A stretch of DNA of 64,000 nt from Escherichia phage C6, in the sequence record MW679410.1. The stretch is one strand, 5' to 3'. Of the stretch, positions 11,230-17,562 are shown one piece after another. Position numbers and translations under genes: made by a program. The notes under the pieces are model-generated. The model ran no database searches, had not been told where the DNA came from, and saw nothing but the letters and a program-made list of their open reading frames with translations. Each line of letters opens with the position of its first letter. Position 1 is the first letter of the stretch.

Positions 11230-11844
11230 TCAGTAAGAAAGAACGGAAAGATTCCAAATGGTGTAATTATTCCATTTAGGATTTCTCTCAATAGAGTCTA
11301 CGCGCAGCGTAGTTCCCGCAGGGAACATCATCTCATCTTCATCATTGATTAATTGTAAGTTTGCTATACGGGTAGATTCAGGAAATGCGCCTGGGAACTC
11401 TTCAGGGGGAGCAGCACATAACATTTTAAAGATTTCTTCCTGATAATTGTACACAAATGGCGCATCATTAATACAAAAGATATTAAATGTTCCATAGAAG
11501 TTATAAGATGCGAAATTCCTTGCCACGTTGAAGTCTTTAGAGAAGCTCATCACACGGTCGAATTCAATTACCGCACCTACACACATTGTGGACTCTAGAT
11601 ACTTCATAGTCTTTTTAGATATGCCGCGATAGAGCTTATCAGGCACTACAGAAGTCAGGTTCTTACGGATGATTTTGTTCAGAGTTTCCTGGATACAATC
11701 TGGTTTATTTTCCATGCACTGCCAGAGGGTACTCTGTTCTAAATCAGAATACACCTCATCAATTTCTATCTGAGTATTCTCACGGAAATCATCGCATTTG
11801 ACATTGTTGATAAATTCTGCTAATTTATGGCTCGGATATAACAT
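11230..11844 (-). CDS. modB: ADP-ribosyltransferase ModB-like
   Basis: 204 aa; R-S-E ART signature: LYRG, SFS, and EDEMMF glutamate motif. Confidence 0.7.
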   Translation of the reverse strand: MLYPSHKLAEFINNVKCDDFRENTQIEIDEVYSDLEQSTLWQCMENKPDCIQETLNKIIRKNLTSVVPDKLYRGISKKTMKYLESTMCVGAVIEFDRVMSFSKDFNVARNFASYNFYGTFNIFCINDAPFVYNYQEEIFKMLCAAPPEEFPGAFPESTRIANLQLINDEDEMMFPAGTTLRVDSIERNPKWNNYTIWNLSVLSY

Positions 11845-11898
11845 ATTATTCTCCTCAGTTGGTAGAAAGATAGTACCACAAGCTTCCTTGCCTGTAAA

Positions 11899-12468
11899 CT
11901 AAAAATCCAACATTTTTAAATGAATTGTTTTATACTCGATTTCGTACGGGTCTCTTTTGACGGTTTCGATTGCAACAATCTCAAATCGCGATTGGCTGGA
12001 GACCATGAACTCACATTCAGTTTCAACCATATCATAGAGGTCAATACGAGTTTCATCAATTTCAAGGTCGTCTACATTCCCTGCAAGAACAAGGTCGATA
12101 GCATGGTTGTAGTAGTCGAAAATGAACGGTGCATTCCTGAGACTTAAAATGGTTTTGGTTCCGTATTCCCATGCCCCTGCAAACTGACGAGCCTGAGAGT
12201 ATTGTGTACTAAAAGAAGTAACGCGACCAGGAGACCATTGACACCCAACAGAAAGAACTTCAAGTTGCTCAAGTTCTCTGGTGGTAATCCCACGATACAA
12301 CTCTACTGGAACCGCTGAAGTAACATGCTTGCGAACCAGTTTGTCGAGGTCGTAATGGAAGTTAGGGTCCTTTTTAGCATCCAGACATTTCTCTAACAAC
12401 GCTTGTTCAGATTTTGAGAATTTGGAATTGATTCGGTCTTGATAAAGACATTTTTGTTCGATGTTCAT
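11899..12468 (-). CDS. modA: ADP-ribosyltransferase ModA-like
   Basis: 189 aa; LYRG arginine motif, TSFST, ECEF glutamate motif; paralog of adjacent ORF. Confidence 0.7.
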   Translation of the reverse strand: MNIEQKCLYQDRINSKFSKSEQALLEKCLDAKKDPNFHYDLDKLVRKHVTSAVPVELYRGITTRELEQLEVLSVGCQWSPGRVTSFSTQYSQARQFAGAWEYGTKTILSLRNAPFIFDYYNHAIDLVLAGNVDDLEIDETRIDLYDMVETECEFMVSSQSRFEIVAIETVKRDPYEIEYKTIHLKMLDF

Positions 12469-12492
12469 ATGACCTCCAGTGATTTAGAGGTC

Positions 12493-12521
12493 ATTATAAC
12501 ATGAAGGGAGGAGGTGTAAAC
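12493..12521 (-). promoter_or_regulatory. T4-type early promoter
   Basis: Minus strand GTTTAC-N17-TATAAT upstream of the modA-like gene. Confidence 0.55.
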
Positions 12522-12775
12522 TACTTAAACACACCAAGTGGGACGCCAAACACTGCAATGTCAGCAGCCATGCCTAATGAGGATTGGGTATATGAAGTAT
12601 AAGAGCTTTTTGATTCATACGAGCTTTTTGTTTCTGGCTTCTCGGCTTCAATCTTAAGAGCTTTCGCCTGAATATTTTTTTGCTCGATTTCCTTACGAGC
12701 CTGTTTACGGTCGATATCCAACGCCGATGTAGGTATATTAGTCAGCCAATTCATTATTTTACCCAAGGAGCCCAA
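12521..12775 (-). CDS. hypothetical protein (84 aa), C-terminal hydrophobic helix
   Basis: ORF. Confidence 0.5.
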   Translation of the reverse strand: MGSLGKIMNWLTNIPTSALDIDRKQARKEIEQKNIQAKALKIEAEKPETKSSYESKSSYTSYTQSSLGMAADIAVFGVPLGVFK

Positions 12776-12942
12776 GGTGGAGGGTCTAAGTAATAAGAAG
12801 CAAGGTCACTAAGGACCTCTTTAGGCAACTTAAAACCGTGCTTCTGTATAATCATATCAAGTTCGTTGACAAGGTCAACAGGCGGCTCCTGAGTTGTTTC
12901 AGGCTCAGGGTCCGGAATGACAAACATATCAAATAAGTCCAT
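12754..12942 (-). CDS. hypothetical protein (62 aa)
   Basis: ORF. Confidence 0.5.
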   Translation of the reverse strand: MDLFDMFVIPDPEPETTQEPPVDLVNELDMIIQKHGFKLPKEVLSDLASYYLDPPPWAPWVK

Positions 12943-13433
12943 TAGTAACCACCGATAGGACCGTACTCGTACATACGAGCTCGCACCTTAGCATCACGAA
13001 TAGCGTCTTCAGTCATGGTAAAGCGCAATCCAATATCAAAGTGTTTCCAAATCTGACGTTCGACTTCAGTAAGGTCTTCGGTAGCTGAAATCAGATAAGT
13101 ACGACCTTTAAGACGTTCGTTGGACATTCTATCGGTATCTTTATAGAAAATGTCCATTGTTCCTTCAGTATAAGGGTCTGCCGGATAACGATAACCCTTG
13201 ATATGCAATGCTTCAGCCAGGCTAAAAGGACAACCTTCAGCAACATCAACATTTTTGTTATGATAAGCCTTCATCATAACATTTTCAGGAAGCTTAATAT
13301 CTTTTAATCGCGTTTCTAACTGGGTTATAGAATTCGTACCATTATCGACAAGGATAAGACACGCCGTAGCATCATAAGGACGCGTTTGTCCGGCAGAATC
13401 ACGAACAAAGAATTCTAGTTCATAAACTTTCAT
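12942..13433 (-). CDS. hypothetical protein (163 aa)
   Basis: ORF. Confidence 0.65.
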
Positions 13434-13587
13434 TATGATTTCCTCTTCTTAGTTTACCTACTAAAGGACCATCCGGAATTTTATTTTCTTGGATGTATTT
13501 CTCGTTTTCTTCCATCATTTTACTACCAATTTTAAGAAGCAAATCCAGTGCCTCTTTAGCATGTTTTTCAGCCTCTTCAGTAGTCAT
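13420..13587 (-). CDS. small hypothetical protein (55 aa)
   Basis: Hand-translated [20 protein letters not shown]...; ATGA overlap with upstream gene stop and overlaps downstream gene start; fills an otherwise empty 150-nt gap. Confidence 0.4.
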
Positions 13588-13784
13588 GATTTATCCCCAT
13601 AGATGTCACGCATAATTCTAAGAGCTTCGCGTTCTAATTTCTTTTCGCGTTCTTCACGGATACCTTTAAGAATCCATTCTTCGGAGTCACGTTTCATTTC
13701 TGCATTGGCTTGGTCTAACCACCCGTCATCAAGATAATCGCCAGGACGGTCTAGCCAATCTTTAAGCCATGATAAAGGTTTCAT
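13584..13784 (-). CDS. hypothetical protein (66 aa)
   Basis: ORF. Confidence 0.55.
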
Positions 13785-14101
13785 TAATCACACGAGCCGG
13801 ACGATGAGCCACAGCTTCCTGAGTCAGAATAAGACGAATCACCGGTCCATGAACTAACGGCAGCCGCAACCATAATAGGAGTGGTATCAATATGGCTTGT
13901 GCGACGAGCTTCTAGATGTTCTTTAAACTTTTTAGAATTCAAAGGAAGAGCGCCTGGCCCCACATTACCAGCTTTTTCAGGTTGACGGATAACTTCTTCC
14001 ATCATACCGTCGCCCACATAAACATATTCCTTCGGACCTGAGATAGGAACCACCCCTTCGCCGGGTTTGGTCTTGAAAAAATTCTTAAGCCAACGAATCA
14101 T
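13784..14101 (-). CDS. hypothetical protein (105 aa) with Ser/Gly/Cys-rich C-terminal tail
   Basis: ORF; C-terminus GDSSYSDSGSCGSSSGSCD. Confidence 0.55.
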   Translation of the reverse strand: MIRWLKNFFKTKPGEGVVPISGPKEYVYVGDGMMEEVIRQPEKAGNVGPGALPLNSKKFKEHLEARRTSHIDTTPIMVAAAVSSWTGDSSYSDSGSCGSSSGSCD

Positions 14102-14343
14102 AGGAAACCTCGTTTAAATTCAACTTTATCGATATCATCAGTCTCGTGACGGATTTCGGCATTAAATTCGATAGAACCGTCTTCATGCATCATAAATGAA
14201 TGGACAATAACTTCGGTATACCAAGGAGTATAAAAGTACTTTTTCAATACGTGGTTAGCGATAATTTCATCCAAAGTTTTATTAGGTTTAATCCAACGAT
14301 TTAACATAGTGTTCTCCTCTATAAGGTAAGACCATCTTAACAC
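14098..14343 (-). CDS. hypothetical protein (81 aa)
   Basis: ORF. Confidence 0.55.
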   Translation of the reverse strand: MLRWSYLIEENTMLNRWIKPNKTLDEIIANHVLKKYFYTPWYTEVIVHSFMMHEDGSIEFNAEIRHETDDIDKVEFKRGFL

Positions 14344-14377
14344 AACCTTCCTAGAAAGTAAACCCTTAAAACGAAAA

Positions 14378-14397
14378 AAGGAACCCGAAGGTTCCTT
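14378..14397 (-). terminator. stem-loop terminator downstream of soc
   Basis: Minus-strand hairpin AAGGAACC-UUCG-GGUUCCUU followed by a U-run. Confidence 0.65.
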
Positions 14398-14401
14398 ATA
14401 A

Positions 14402-14635
14402 TTAAACTACTGGGGTAGGCGTGAACATTGCTGCGTTCTTGGTCTTCCAGTCAGCAGCATCAGTCACTACGGTTGAGTAGGCCGCAACGGCTGAAGGGAA
14501 AGTCTGATAATGAGAGTCTGCAATACGGTGCTCGTTTGAATAAATCTCAAACGGGACCGAAACCTCAGTACCTTTAACTTCTTTGCCTTCACCGGCTGGA
14601 TGTGTAAAGGTTTTGATATTAACGAAACCACCCAT
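14402..14635 (-). CDS. soc: small outer capsid protein Soc
   Basis: 77 aa; GFVNIKTF...HYQTFPS..AAYSTV matches my recollection of T4 Soc; preceded by late promoter. Confidence 0.8.
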   Translation of the reverse strand: MGGFVNIKTFTHPAGEGKEVKGTEVSVPFEIYSNEHRIADSHYQTFPSAVAAYSTVVTDAADWKTKNAAMFTPTPVV

Positions 14636-14666
14636 AATTAACTCCTTTGTTGTTTAATTACAGGTG

Positions 14667-14674
14667 TATTTATA
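14667..14674 (-). promoter_or_regulatory. T4-type late promoter TATAAATA for soc
   Basis: Exact TATAAATA on the minus strand about 30 nt upstream of the soc ATG. Confidence 0.6.
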
Positions 14675-14676
14675 AC

Positions 14677-15198
14677 TTAATAACCTCGGTCTTGACGAGC
14701 AAAGTTCTCAGCATTTTTCAGGTAATACAACTTAAAGATTTCTTCAGCAGTCAGACCAAGACCTTGGAACATATTCAGAACAAAGTGCAGAATATCAATC
14801 ATCTCGAATTTAATTTCAAGCTGGTCTTCAGGAGAGAGTTCGTCAATACGACGGTTACGGAATTCACCGTGCTGAGCTTTCCAAGGCTTCCAGACGCTAG
14901 ATGCGGCTTTCTCACCATTACTCATGCCACCAAGAGAAGTCAACAGTTCACGGAATTCGTCATCAATATAATCTTTCTGGTTGCGAAGCCAATCGACAAC
15001 TTGACCTGCAGTAGCCAGTTCATCGGGGTTAGAGTTAAATTCAGATTTTTCAGTAGCCAAACGGACCTGTAATGATTTCTGCATATCAAGCATAACCTGC
15101 AGAGGGTCTTTATCTTCGTGAATCAAAGCATTAAAATAAGCTTCCTCAGCTTTATCAACACCAGCAATAAGTTGTGAGCATTCGTTAAAGTGTGCCAT
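14677..15198 (-). CDS. 56: dCTP pyrophosphatase gp56 (MazG-like)
   Basis: 173 aa; position and size match T4 gp56. Confidence 0.8.
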   Translation of the reverse strand: MAHFNECSQLIAGVDKAEEAYFNALIHEDKDPLQVMLDMQKSLQVRLATEKSEFNSNPDELATAGQVVDWLRNQKDYIDDEFRELLTSLGGMSNGEKAASSVWKPWKAQHGEFRNRRIDELSPEDQLEIKFEMIDILHFVLNMFQGLGLTAEEIFKLYYLKNAENFARQDRGY

Positions 15199-15290
15199 TA
15201 TATTTTTTTCCTTTTCAATTCATTAGTAAGTTAGATAATTATAAACTGTTAGATTAAAGCGAATAAATAATAATTTAACAGGAGGATAAC

Positions 15291-15491
15291 ATGGGCAGTA
15301 TTTTTTACCAAATCTGGAAATTGGCCGAAAAGAAAGACAAGAAAATGATGTTAGGTTTTCTTGCGCTAGACGTATTCCTTTGGAATCTTCTAGTAGTCCC
15401 TGTAGCCGCTAGCCAAGGGATAATTTTACCAGCGGTTACAATGGAACACGTGTTAAGCATAATTGGATTCTTTAGCGGAATCCACGCTTAA
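15291..15491 (+). CDS. small membrane protein (66 aa) on the opposite strand
   Basis: Plus-strand ORF with perfect AGGAGG SD 7 nt upstream of ATG; two hydrophobic helices; lies in a 290-nt gap between minus-strand genes 56 and 61. Confidence 0.5.
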   Translation: MGSIFYQIWKLAEKKDKKMMLGFLALDVFLWNLLVVPVAASQGIILPAVTMEHVLSIIGFFSGIHA

Positions 15492-16516
15492 ATTTTGGAA
15501 TATTTCGAAAGTCTCATTTTAGCCATTAGACCTTGGGCTATATTAGCTTTCATATATGCCAGTACATCATTTATATCAGCTTTATCTTTCATAATCATAT
15601 CATTTATATCTTTAGAAGGCCATGGAGCCTTGTCCCAGAATAGAACCCTTTCGCCAGCATCAACTAATCGTTGCATACGCTTAATTGTGTCAGGATGGCG
15701 GGGTTCATTGTCCATCACCCAGGCACGAGTTTCTTTACATGGAACCATAGCCAAGTCCAACGACCCGCCAGTAATTGCTATTGCATTCGGTACGAATAAT
15801 GAATCGATAGGACCTTCCATTACCCACACCAATTGACGTTCATCAACCGTATCCATTCCATATATTTTTGTAGCTTGGTCATGAGCTTTTATTGTAATAT
15901 ACTTTTGTGGAGCATCTTTACGTAAGGCTCGACCCTGAAAACTTTCAATTTGTTTATTCTTATTGAAAATTGGAATAACCAAACGAGGTTCAGGCATTTC
16001 TTTAGAATAGGTCCCTGGATTCACAGAGTTAACTAATGCAGGCCATTCTTTAGTAAACCATAGCCGATTCCATTTATTTTCAGGAATGCAACGCAACGTC
16101 ACATATTTGATAATAGGATGGTCCTTTGGCATTCTATCTAATCGTTCACAGAAATTAAGCTTTTCGATAATAGGCATCTTAGCTTTAATTTTTTCAGATA
16201 TCTCCACCTTAGGTGCAGCTTGTCTCCCGAACGATTGCTCTTTATGTTTCTCAAGAATATATTCACGATATAAATCAGGCTCGTATTCGTATAGATACTT
16301 CTTAATTCCTGCTGAATAATCACAGTTAAAACAGTGCAGCATTACGGAGCCGTCATTAGCAGGATAGGCCCAAAAACGAGCTTTGTTCTCATCTTTTAGG
16401 GAGTCACCGCATACACGACAACGGCAGTTTAATTTAAAATCACTACCGGTTACTTGTCTGAATTTAGGTTGGTAATTCAAGGCACGTACAGCAAATTCTC
16501 TATCGACATATGACAT
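15488..16516 (-). CDS. 61: DNA primase gp61
   Basis: 342 aa; N-terminal Cys4 zinc ribbon (CRCRVCGD...CFNCDY) then Toprim-like region; same length as T4 gp61. Confidence 0.9.
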   Translation of the reverse strand: MSYVDREFAVRALNYQPKFRQVTGSDFKLNCRCRVCGDSLKDENKARFWAYPANDGSVMLHCFNCDYSAGIKKYLYEYEPDLYREYILEKHKEQSFGRQAAPKVEISEKIKAKMPIIEKLNFCERLDRMPKDHPIIKYVTLRCIPENKWNRLWFTKEWPALVNSVNPGTYSKEMPEPRLVIPIFNKNKQIESFQGRALRKDAPQKYITIKAHDQATKIYGMDTVDERQLVWVMEGPIDSLFVPNAIAITGGSLDLAMVPCKETRAWVMDNEPRHPDTIKRMQRLVDAGERVLFWDKAPWPSKDINDMIMKDKADINDVLAYMKANIAQGLMAKMRLSKYSKI

Positions 16517-16554
16517 TATTTTTCCTTGGGCTCTAAATTAATAGAGCCATTATA

Positions 16555-16716
16555 TCATTCGTTTTCGGATTTTTCTTTACGCTTTTTAGATGGGATTTGT
16601 TCAGGCCCTTTGTTGACGACAGCGCCTGAGGTAGTTCCGGAGGCAATAGCAGTAGGATTACCACCTGCATCACCTGCGACCATATCTTCGTTCATAACTT
16701 CTTTAAAAGATTTCAT
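16555..16716 (-). CDS. small hypothetical protein (53 aa)
   Basis: Hand-translated ORF MKSFKEVMNEDMVAGDAGGNPT...; AGGAG SD; TATAAATA-like element just upstream. Confidence 0.4.
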   Translation of the reverse strand: MKSFKEVMNEDMVAGDAGGNPTAIASGTTSGAVVNKGPEQIPSKKRKEKSENE

Positions 16717-16732
16717 AGGCTCCTGGCCTTAT

Positions 16733-16924
16733 TTATATTACGAAAATAGCTTTATCACCATTTGCATCAGTGACTTCATAGGTATCTTCGTGGTAAAGTG
16801 GAATAATCCAAGTCACACCATCACCAGCAATAATATGGATAGCTTCTTGGTCTTTTGATACGATTTCATATTCTTCGAATAACTCGAATACAGAAATCTT
16901 AGAGCCCGTACACATTGCACTCAT
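16733..16924 (-). CDS. hypothetical protein (63 aa)
   Basis: ORF. Confidence 0.5.
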   Translation of the reverse strand: MSAMCTGSKISVFELFEEYEIVSKDQEAIHIIAGDGVTWIIPLYHEDTYEVTDANGDKAIFVI

Positions 16925-17120
16925 ATTGTTCCCTTCTTTTAATCAGTTGGCGATGGGCCTTTTTAAGTTTACGAAGCTGGCGTTTAGTTGGTCGTGCAAC
17001 ATAAGCTTGAGTAGTTACTCGTCCAAAAACACCGTACTTAGGCGAAGGAGAATCGATGAAGACTTCCCATTGACAAGAGTAGCTATACACGGCTTTAGAG
17101 AATTGAGTTAAGACAAACAT
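16899..17120 (-). CDS. small basic protein with PTKRQ motif (73 aa)
   Basis: ORF; shares W-E-[VL]...PTKRQ[IL]R block with ORF 17908..18147. Confidence 0.5.
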   Translation of the reverse strand: MFVLTQFSKAVYSYSCQWEVFIDSPSPKYGVFGRVTTQAYVARPTKRQLRKLKKAHRQLIKRREQYECNVYGL

Positions 17121-17121
17121 A

Positions 17122-17562
17122 TTAACCTCGATTCATAAAAGCATTAAAAATTTGGTCATCAATTGAATAAACCGGGGCTTCCAGAATTTTCAACAGACTA
17201 TTTTTGATGTACTTGCTAGGGATATCCATATTAATGCCGTCATTCAATTCATTGTCCGGGAGGATATCTTTAAATTCAAACCCATCAAACTCAACCTTGT
17301 CAGGAATACCTTCAGCGAAAAAATAAACCAATTGATGTATTGCATTACATGAAAATAATTTAGACTTGACTGCAATAAGTTCTTGCCAATGGTTTAATTC
17401 TCTGTTAAGGAGTTTATGAGCAAATATAATTCTATCATCACTATCAACAAGAAAATAACCTAGGTATTGGTGGTCGTCGCTCCAATACATCCTGTATGCT
17501 TGTGCATTTGGATTTTTACAACGAAGTTTTTTGATAACTAAAGTTCTGTTAATCTTATTCAC
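17122..17562 (-). CDS. hypothetical protein (146 aa)
   Basis: ORF. Confidence 0.65.
   Translation of the reverse strand: MNKINRTLVIKKLRCKNPNAQAYRMYWSDDHQYLGYFLVDSDDRIIFAHKLLNRELNHWQELIAVKSKLFSCNAIHQLVYFFAEGIPDKVEFDGFEFKDILPDNELNDGINMDIPSKYIKNSLLKILEAPVYSIDDQIFNAFMNRG

Follow-up and report, generated by a model that had tools for sequence, protein, structure and literature searches.

Approximately 130 genes of bacteriophage T4 still have no assigned function. The described gene to which the open reading frame (ORF) analyzed here is related, T4 mrh.1, encodes a protein (NP_049642, UniProt P20706) of the DUF7206 family, and our searches of the literature on mrh.1 and DUF7206 found no functional study; mrh is also absent from the main text of HIDEN-SEQ, a transposon study of T4. 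Time-resolved omics data of T4 place the mrh.1 mRNA among the early transcripts and give the protein class as NA, and in the same data the mrh.2, mrh, and srh proteins were detected (PMC9697503 supplement). The very few tryptic sites (Lys/Arg) in T4 Mrh.1 are the simplest explanation for its absence from proteomics; alternatively, a modified tail could account for the missing protein. In the CRISPRi-ART screen of T4, knock-down of mrh.1 was classed as Semi-Fit, with a log2 score of 0.79 and a p of 0.069, which is a weak effect toward slightly lower T4 fitness, and the gene is among the five Semi-Fit T4 genes with purely unknown function (PMC11879866 supplement). The gene is widespread, as T4-type mrh.1 is found in 502 phage records, all at an identity of at least 80%, and a query with the Dhakavirus type matched 179 records.

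The window, that is, the whole stretch of 64,000 nucleotides of Escherichia phage C6 (MW679410.1) that was analyzed, comes from a Dhakavirus, a JS98-like T-even phage, and its best match is Escherichia phage LHE83. A previous sequence-only reading had drawn attention to a 105-aa ORF with an odd Ser/Gly/Cys-rich C-terminus, and this ORF is present exactly as described, on the minus strand, from an ATG at 14101..14099 to a TAA at 13786..13784. We consider it almost certain that the ORF is the Dhakavirus ortholog of the T4 early gene mrh.1, and that its tail is under selection. The Pfam profile PF23836 (DUF7206) matched it with an E of 3.3e-32 and a score of 111.7 bits (cut-off 25.6), residues 1-105 aligning to profile positions 1-107 of 107, and phrog_2031 matched it with an E of 1.2e-28; orthologs in phages JS10, Bp7, and SP18 carry the annotation mrh.1. 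DUF7206 was the sole Pfam match, and nothing significant emerged from searches of NCBIfam and the PDB with the window protein. T4 mrh.1 (L002 3186..3527) sits in the equivalent position, downstream of soc and mrh.2, and the window ORF lies, as expected of a DUF7206 gene, in a same-strand T-even early region, after soc and mrh.2 and before the srh, mrh, and mod genes. All of the signature motifs of the family are present as well, namely M-I-x-W-L-K, the E-Y-x-Y-x-G-D-G hairpin, and a Ser-rich tail with two or four Cys that ends in Cys-Asp; the signature residues are W4, K6, Y28, G30, D31, G32, C97, C104, and D105, and G98 departs from the consensus, which is Asp in most members. The family itself is already known, and the window ORF is a further member of it and not a system of a new kind. 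The tail signature (two or four Cys and a terminal Cys-Asp), on the other hand, seems not to have been reported in the literature that was searched.

The early block to which the ORF belongs runs along the minus strand in the order 61, 56, soc, mrh.2, mrh.1, srh, modA.4, mrh, modB, and modA, with the following features:

15488..16516, minus strand: primase gene 61, early block
14677..15198, minus strand: dCTPase gene 56, early block
14402..14635, minus strand: soc, early block
14378..14397, minus strand: terminator-like intrinsic hairpin 3' of soc, 8-bp stem, AAGGAACCTTCGGGTTCCTT then TTTTCGTTTT
14334..14363, minus strand: candidate early promoter for mrh.2-mrh.1-srh, GTTTAC, 18 nt, TAAGAT, with TGT abutting the -10 hexamer
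14098..14307, minus strand: mrh.2 ortholog, 69 aa from the ATG at 14307, phrog_1873, E 1.6e-33
13784..14101, minus strand: coding sequence of the mrh.1 ortholog, 105 aa plus stop, Pfam DUF7206, phrog_2031
13584..13784, minus strand: srh ortholog, 66 aa, postulated sigma-32 decoy, phrog_2441, E 3.2e-34
13420..13587, minus strand: modA.4-like gene, early block
12942..13433, minus strand: mrh, early block

The genes surrounding mrh.1 are tightly packed, as its start overlaps the stop of mrh.2 (ATGA) and its stop overlaps the start of srh (TAATG), and a Shine-Dalgarno GAGG is found 6 nt 5' of its ATG. The candidate promoter was read by eye and is under the scan threshold (8/12 matches), so that its assignment leans on the known pattern of T4 early promoters. 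That the ORF would encode an early phage protein, as had been supposed from sequence alone, agrees both with its position in this T-even early block and with the early transcript of its T4 counterpart. The N-terminus MLNRWIKPN is common to the window Mrh.2 and to T4 Mrh.2. In terms of gene content relative to T4 (L002, T4 11500..17500), the interval 12942..15198 of the window is without the segF homing endonuclease between 56 and soc, and one gene of the mrh family (PF24070) is found in the window, after srh and modA.4, compared to two in T4 (mrh and modA.3, both phrog_1234). A 66-aa hydrophobic ORF (MGSIFYQIWKLAEKKDKKMMLGFLALDVFLWNLLVVPVAASQGIILPAV...) occupies 15291..15491 on the opposite (plus) strand between 56 and 61, and LHE83 has an equivalent opposite-strand coding sequence between the same two genes, annotated as hypothetical. 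The most divergent members of the Mrh.1 family are also located in T4-like early regions, where they adjoin Mod ADP-ribosyltransferase, Dda helicase, and DexA.

With regard to the protein itself, two AlphaFold2 runs, performed with 45 and 55 aligned sequences, returned a mean pLDDT of approximately 58 and a pTM of 0.18-0.19, too poor for a meaningful fold search, and Mrh.1 is predicted from these models to be a mostly disordered protein. AlphaFold2 assigns residues 3-8 to a short helix, 24-38 (EYVYVGDGMMEEV) to a beta-hairpin, and 56-68 to a second helix, with coil from approximately residue 70 to the end; in both runs the tail was modeled as coil with a pLDDT of about 45-51, in keeping with the flexible tail that had been suggested earlier. 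The parts of the protein can be placed on the DNA as follows:

14069..14101, minus strand: N-terminal amphipathic helix, residues 1-11, MIRWLKNFFKT, with the conserved pattern M-I-x-W-L-K-x-L/F-F and the motif KPGEGVVPI after it
13988..14032, minus strand: conserved beta-hairpin, residues 24-38, KEYVYVGDGMMEEVI, with strands at 24-28 and 34-38 (AlphaFold2)
13928..13973, minus strand: second linear motif, residues 43-58, K-A-G-N-V-G-P-G-A-L-P-L-N-x-x-x-L-K (KAGNVGPGALPLNSKKLKEHL and variants), recurrent in the family
13787..13855, minus strand: conserved C-terminal tail, residues 83-105, SSWTGDSSYSDSGSCGSSSGSCD, with Cys97, Cys104, and the terminal Asp105, from the alignments

The hydrophobic moment of the N-terminal 11 residues is 0.80. 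The possibility of an exported or membrane-spanning Mrh.1 was considered and rejected, as the protein has no signal peptide, its N-terminus is amphipathic, and its longest hydrophobic run, PIMVAAAV, counts 8 residues where about 18 or more are needed; the equivalent segment of T4 Mrh.1 is VPVHVWAG. The strongly conserved hairpin (EYVYMGDGMMEEV; as a pattern, E-Y-V-Y-x-G-D-G-M-M-E-E-V) has Y28, G30, and G32 invariant, and its pN/pS is 0.145. The linker that follows is rich in Ser and Thr and varies in length, with family members ranging from 96 to 164 aa, and the motif at residues 43-58 is found within Dhakavirus, Moonvirus, Kanagawavirus, Kagamiyamavirus, and several metagenomic lineages, and is absent from T4 and Marfavirus. 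With conserved ends, a variable linker, and predicted disorder, Mrh.1 looks like an intrinsically disordered effector. Compared to the window protein, T4 Mrh.1 shares the N-terminal helix, the GDG hairpin, and the Cys-Asp C-terminus, but carries four Cys (C-x3-C-x3-C-x4-C-D) instead of two (C-x6-C-D) and is without the KAGNVGPGALPLN linker motif. Two long variants of the family, of 164 aa (P0025) and 138 aa (P0015), are mosaics, the former being composed of a T4-type N-terminal half, a Dhakavirus-type half ('MEEIIRQPEKAGNVG...SSW'), and a four-Cys T4-type tail, and such arrangements point to recombination or duplication inside the linker.

The C-terminal 19 residues of the window protein are GDSSYSDSGSCGSSSGSCD. 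The Ser content of SSWTGDSSYSDSGSCGSSS is the highest of any 19-residue stretch encoded by the 218 ATG-initiated ORFs (50 aa or longer) of the 64-kb window, and the probability of finding 10 or more Ser in 19 residues is 3e-8 at a background Ser of 6%, which bears out the claim that this composition is unusual. When 1.84 billion representative proteins were searched with a profile, only 37 clusters at 50% identity emerged, with one architecture throughout, barring a few truncated or frameshifted fragments, and the tail is common to these clusters and to at least eight T-even genera, including Dhakavirus, Tequatrovirus, Marfavirus, Winklervirus, Kagamiyamavirus, Moonvirus, and Kanagawavirus, as well as to metagenomic lineages. 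The sequence-only reading would have been refuted by a tail that is not conserved in orthologs, and the opposite was found: after setting aside 4 truncated or frameshifted fragments from 103 distinct family sequences, 98 of the 99 intact members end in CD, and the remaining one ends in CN. That reading is thereby partly supported: of its three suggestions, a flexible tail, a metal-binding site, and a modification site, the first agrees with the AlphaFold2 models, and it left a known gene, mrh.1/DUF7206, unrecognized.

Among the same 99 proteins, the last 25 residues contain exactly two Cys in 92 and four, as in T4, in 7, and no member has one or three; outside the tail, Cys accounts for 0.1% of the protein residues. 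Basic residues are nearly missing from the tail, where one Lys or Arg was counted in approximately 2,475 residues, and Ser makes up 47% of its last 20 residues, followed by Asp (18%), Gly (12%), Cys (11%), and Tyr (7%). The Cys are spaced as C-x5-10-C, most often as C-x6-C (62/99 members), and the T4 type has C-x3-C-x3-C-x4-C. Phage EcS1 has Ser at the position of the usual first Cys and a new Cys 18 residues upstream, which indicates that a Cys pair was retained despite the loss of one of its positions. In 45 close or moderately distant homologs, SSWTGDSSYS(SY)DSGSCDSSSSSCD is near-invariant and the middle of the protein is rewritten, and T4 Mrh.1 ends in WAGDSCGSSCDSSCSSTSCD despite an identity to the window protein of about 45-50% that covers only the N-terminal 40-50 residues; the orthologs from Marfavirus, Winklervirus, Kagamiyamavirus, Moonvirus, Kanagawavirus, and metagenomes end in ...S-C-D-S-x(4-6)-[SGT]-C-D. 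Mean majority-residue conservation falls from 0.83 in the hairpin and 0.75 in the tail (residues 86-105) to 0.64 in the N-terminus and 0.36 in the middle, and in these alignments the hairpin and the tail are the two best conserved parts of DUF7206. The window allele differs from LHE83 (L001 3001..3324) and from the consensus in two respects, a two-codon deletion (SSYS--DSGS instead of SSYSSYDSGS) and a Gly in place of the Asp after the first Cys (SCG instead of SCD), and the same SSYS--DSGS/SCG allele is also present in three other loci (L008, L009, and L011).

A repetitive, Ser-rich stretch at the end of a gene could in principle be a non-functional by-product of slippage, or a DNA or RNA signal (ribosome-binding or coupling) that serves the downstream gene, and both the two-codon Ser-Tyr length difference between the window and LHE83 and the overlap of the mrh.1 stop with the srh start would be compatible with such an origin. 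Codon usage, however, speaks against it. Both TCN and AGY codons are found in the conserved Ser columns, and a switch from one to the other needs at least two substitutions; the final Cys codon is TGT in 10 and TGC in 8 of the distinct tails, and for the final Asp codon GAT outnumbers GAC by 15 to 3. Between genera, synonymous sites have reached saturation (pS 0.88). Such synonymous variation of the Ser, Cys, and Asp codons indicates that selection acts on the protein and not on the DNA. Furthermore, the gene found 3' of the tail is mrh in T4 and srh in the window, and the tail is retained in both, despite the different downstream gene and junction. Because codons change freely, TCN and AGY included, as the amino acids are kept, because the Cys-Asp end persists in all intact members barring the single CN, and because the downstream gene differs, a DNA signal or slippage junk can be ruled out, and we give this explanation practically no credence. 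Our codon comparison has shown purifying selection on the tail at the protein level, and the tail is very probably functional.

As to what that function might be, we tentatively propose, in a reading that may well prove wrong, that the tail is a flexible thiolate/carboxylate ligand, tethered to the N-terminal module, for a metal or for a site, metal-containing or basic, on a partner. The tail would be the working end of the protein, with Cys97, Cys104, the neighboring Asp side chains, and the free C-terminal carboxylate as ligands, and the N-terminal helix and hairpin would dock Mrh.1 to its target or to the membrane. The tail itself might bind a metal ion or cluster (Zn, Fe, or Cu), which would be bridged between two chains in the two-Cys forms and held within one chain in the four-Cys T4 form; alternatively, the tail might be inserted into a site on a host target that is basic or holds a metal. 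What suggests a ligand is the combination of an even number of thiols, an Asp beside each Cys in most members, the invariant Cys-Asp end, the lack of basic residues, and flexibility, and indeed the strictly even Cys number, the adjacent Asp, and the invariant terminal Cys-Asp favor a paired-thiol function such as metal chelation. Several features, on the other hand, argue against a metal: the canonical motif is missing, as there are no CxxC pairs and no His; the spacing of 5-10 residues between Cys, and of 18 in one lineage, is loose for a preorganised site; the window protein has Gly and not Asp after its first Cys; and even Cys numbers would equally fit a disulfide or a paired modification. 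Similarly, neither the C-x5-10-C spacing nor the C-x3-C-x3-C-x4-C of the T4 type corresponds to the fixed CxxC pairs or the C-x2-C-x2-C-x3-C spacing of zinc ribbons, zinc knuckles, or ferredoxin-type proteins, and Pfam matches DUF7206 only.

Known proteins offer some chemical precedents. Sensors of the MerR family have a metal-binding Cys loop near the C-terminus, such as the C-x7-C of CueR. Like these loops, that of Mrh.1, with its two Cys 6-8 residues apart, is Ser/Asp/Gly-rich and near the C-terminus, and could provide bis-thiolate coordination; unlike the MerR sensors, Mrh.1 has neither a MerR fold nor a DNA-binding domain, its tail is disordered with no dimer interface to hold the loop, and there is no homology between the two. 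In metallocarboxypeptidase inhibitors, and in the 'cysteine switch' and 'aspartate switch' of metalloprotease pro-domains, a terminus or a Cys or Asp enters the catalytic zinc site, and the resemblance to Mrh.1, a thiol beside a carboxylate at a flexible terminus, is a chemical analogy alone, with no homology. Mercapto-acyl amino-acid drugs such as captopril provide a chemical likeness for Cys-Asp-COOH. By analogy, Cys-Asp-COOH might be an encoded thiol plus carboxylate 'warhead' that a disordered tail would bring to the metal in the active site of a metalloenzyme of the host, such as a zinc protease with a part in the stress response or in phage exclusion, with the helix and hairpin again as the docking part. 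This more specific idea is highly improbable in our judgment, yet if it were true it would make Mrh.1 an early phage inhibitor of a new kind.

The free C-terminus might also be read without any metal, if the tail were an acidic, disordered short linear motif that acts as a partner-binding peptide, a nucleic-acid mimic, or a stability signal, and in which the Cys pair would form a redox-sensitive loop or simply be part of the recognized sequence. That the last two residues are invariant and that no member extends beyond them suggests recognition of the terminus itself, and this explanation is also in line with the strongly negative charge of a tail without basic residues and with the disorder that AlphaFold2 predicts for Mrh.1; a second conserved motif in the linker, KAGNVGPGALPLNSKKLKEHL, suggests in turn a protein built from several short binding motifs. 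It leaves unexplained, however, why the number of Cys is always even and why the loss of a Cys is compensated, and a stable disulfide is improbable given the reducing cytoplasm and the lack of a signal peptide. We regard this explanation as rather doubtful. Acidic C-terminal tails attached to an OB fold are found in E. coli SSB, T4 gp32, and T7 gp2.5, with hydrophobic/acidic ends that carry no Cys, and they serve as tethered peptides for binding. The tail of Mrh.1 is like them in being disordered, acidic, and Ser-rich with a conserved extreme C-terminus, and Mrh.1 is unlike these proteins in that no OB domain could be detected in it with Pfam, NCBIfam, or the PDB.

Another explanation, which we hold to be quite unlikely, is that the tail is a site of covalent modification, whereby a host or phage enzyme would have to modify the Ser/Cys-rich C-terminus for Mrh.1 to become active. 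Such a modification might be phosphorylation of Ser or Tyr, the formation of azoles or thioethers known from ribosomal peptide natural products, acylation, or an ADP-ribosylation for which the neighboring Mod or Alt would be responsible. The precursor of microcin B17, McbA, and similar modified peptides have a Gly/Ser/Cys-rich C-terminal core with Gly-Ser-Cys triplets behind a conserved N-terminal part. The content of Ser, Gly, and Cys in the Mrh.1 tails (47%, 12%, and 11%, respectively) and the Gly-Ser or Ser-Ser that precedes the Cys recall such cores, and the conserved N-terminal part could serve as a recognition 'leader'. Compared to McbA-type precursors, however, Mrh.1 is much longer, 96-164 aa being long for a peptide precursor, its tail is acidic with an invariant Cys-Asp end, and no sequence homology was found; moreover, the annotations and Pfam labels of nine loci contain no cognate modifying enzyme, whether cyclodehydratase, lanthionine synthetase, radical-SAM maturase, or kinase. 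Mod ADP-ribosyltransferases are encoded within approximately 2 kb of mrh.1 in every genome examined, and directly adjoin it in one (L035). The Mod and Alt enzymes of T4 are arginine-specific, and the tail has no Arg, which argues against them as the modifying enzymes. A modified or otherwise unusual peptide could explain why Mrh.1 went unassigned in T4 proteomics where its neighbors were assigned, but, as said above, the few tryptic sites of the T4 protein do so more simply.

Whether as a ligand for metal, which is the reading that we tentatively prefer, or otherwise, what had been noted as an odd tail can now be described as a specific signature, an acidic Ser-rich stretch with two or four Cys and a Cys-Asp end, that is found across the enterobacterial T-even genera sampled. 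Such a signature is a concrete handle for experiments and could help show what this early, widely conserved protein of host takeover does. The result is a useful lead on a known family.

We also evaluated sigma-32 mimicry, as postulated for the neighbor Srh, by Mrh.1 itself, in which the N-terminus would resemble the 'RpoH box' and the tail an acidic Ser-rich stretch of RpoH, and rejected it, as the best alignment to RpoH covered 12 residues with an E of 0.64. When Srh was run likewise, its residues 12-59 aligned to residues 234-279 of E. coli RpoH with a pairwise E of 6e-5, which fits the annotation of Srh as a postulated sigma-32 decoy.

A further ORF of this region is the following:

12521..12754, minus strand: 77-aa ORF, phrog_14077, with a Ser/Tyr-rich stretch KSSYESKSSYTSYTQSS and a hydrophobic C-terminus LGMAADIAVFGVPLGVFK

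The N-terminal NWL of this ORF and its Ser/Tyr stretch made it a candidate paralog of Mrh.1, which was discarded when a profile comparison aligned only 4 residues with a probability of 0.5%; in the T4 annotation, no gene is present in the mod-mrh interval where the 77-aa ORF would correspond. The pattern W-[LIF]-[KT] occurs within the first 10 residues of only 4 of the 218 ATG-initiated ORFs (at least 50 aa), all of them on the minus strand and within 1.8 kb, namely mrh.2 (MLNRWIKP), mrh.1 (MIRWLKN), srh (MKPLSWLKD), and the 77-aa ORF (MNWLTN), and the longer pattern W-L-K-x-[FW]-[FL]-x(1-2)-[KR]-P-G-[ED] is common to Mrh.1 and Srh. This common N-terminus could be a shared docking or membrane-targeting element, or the trace of a duplication.
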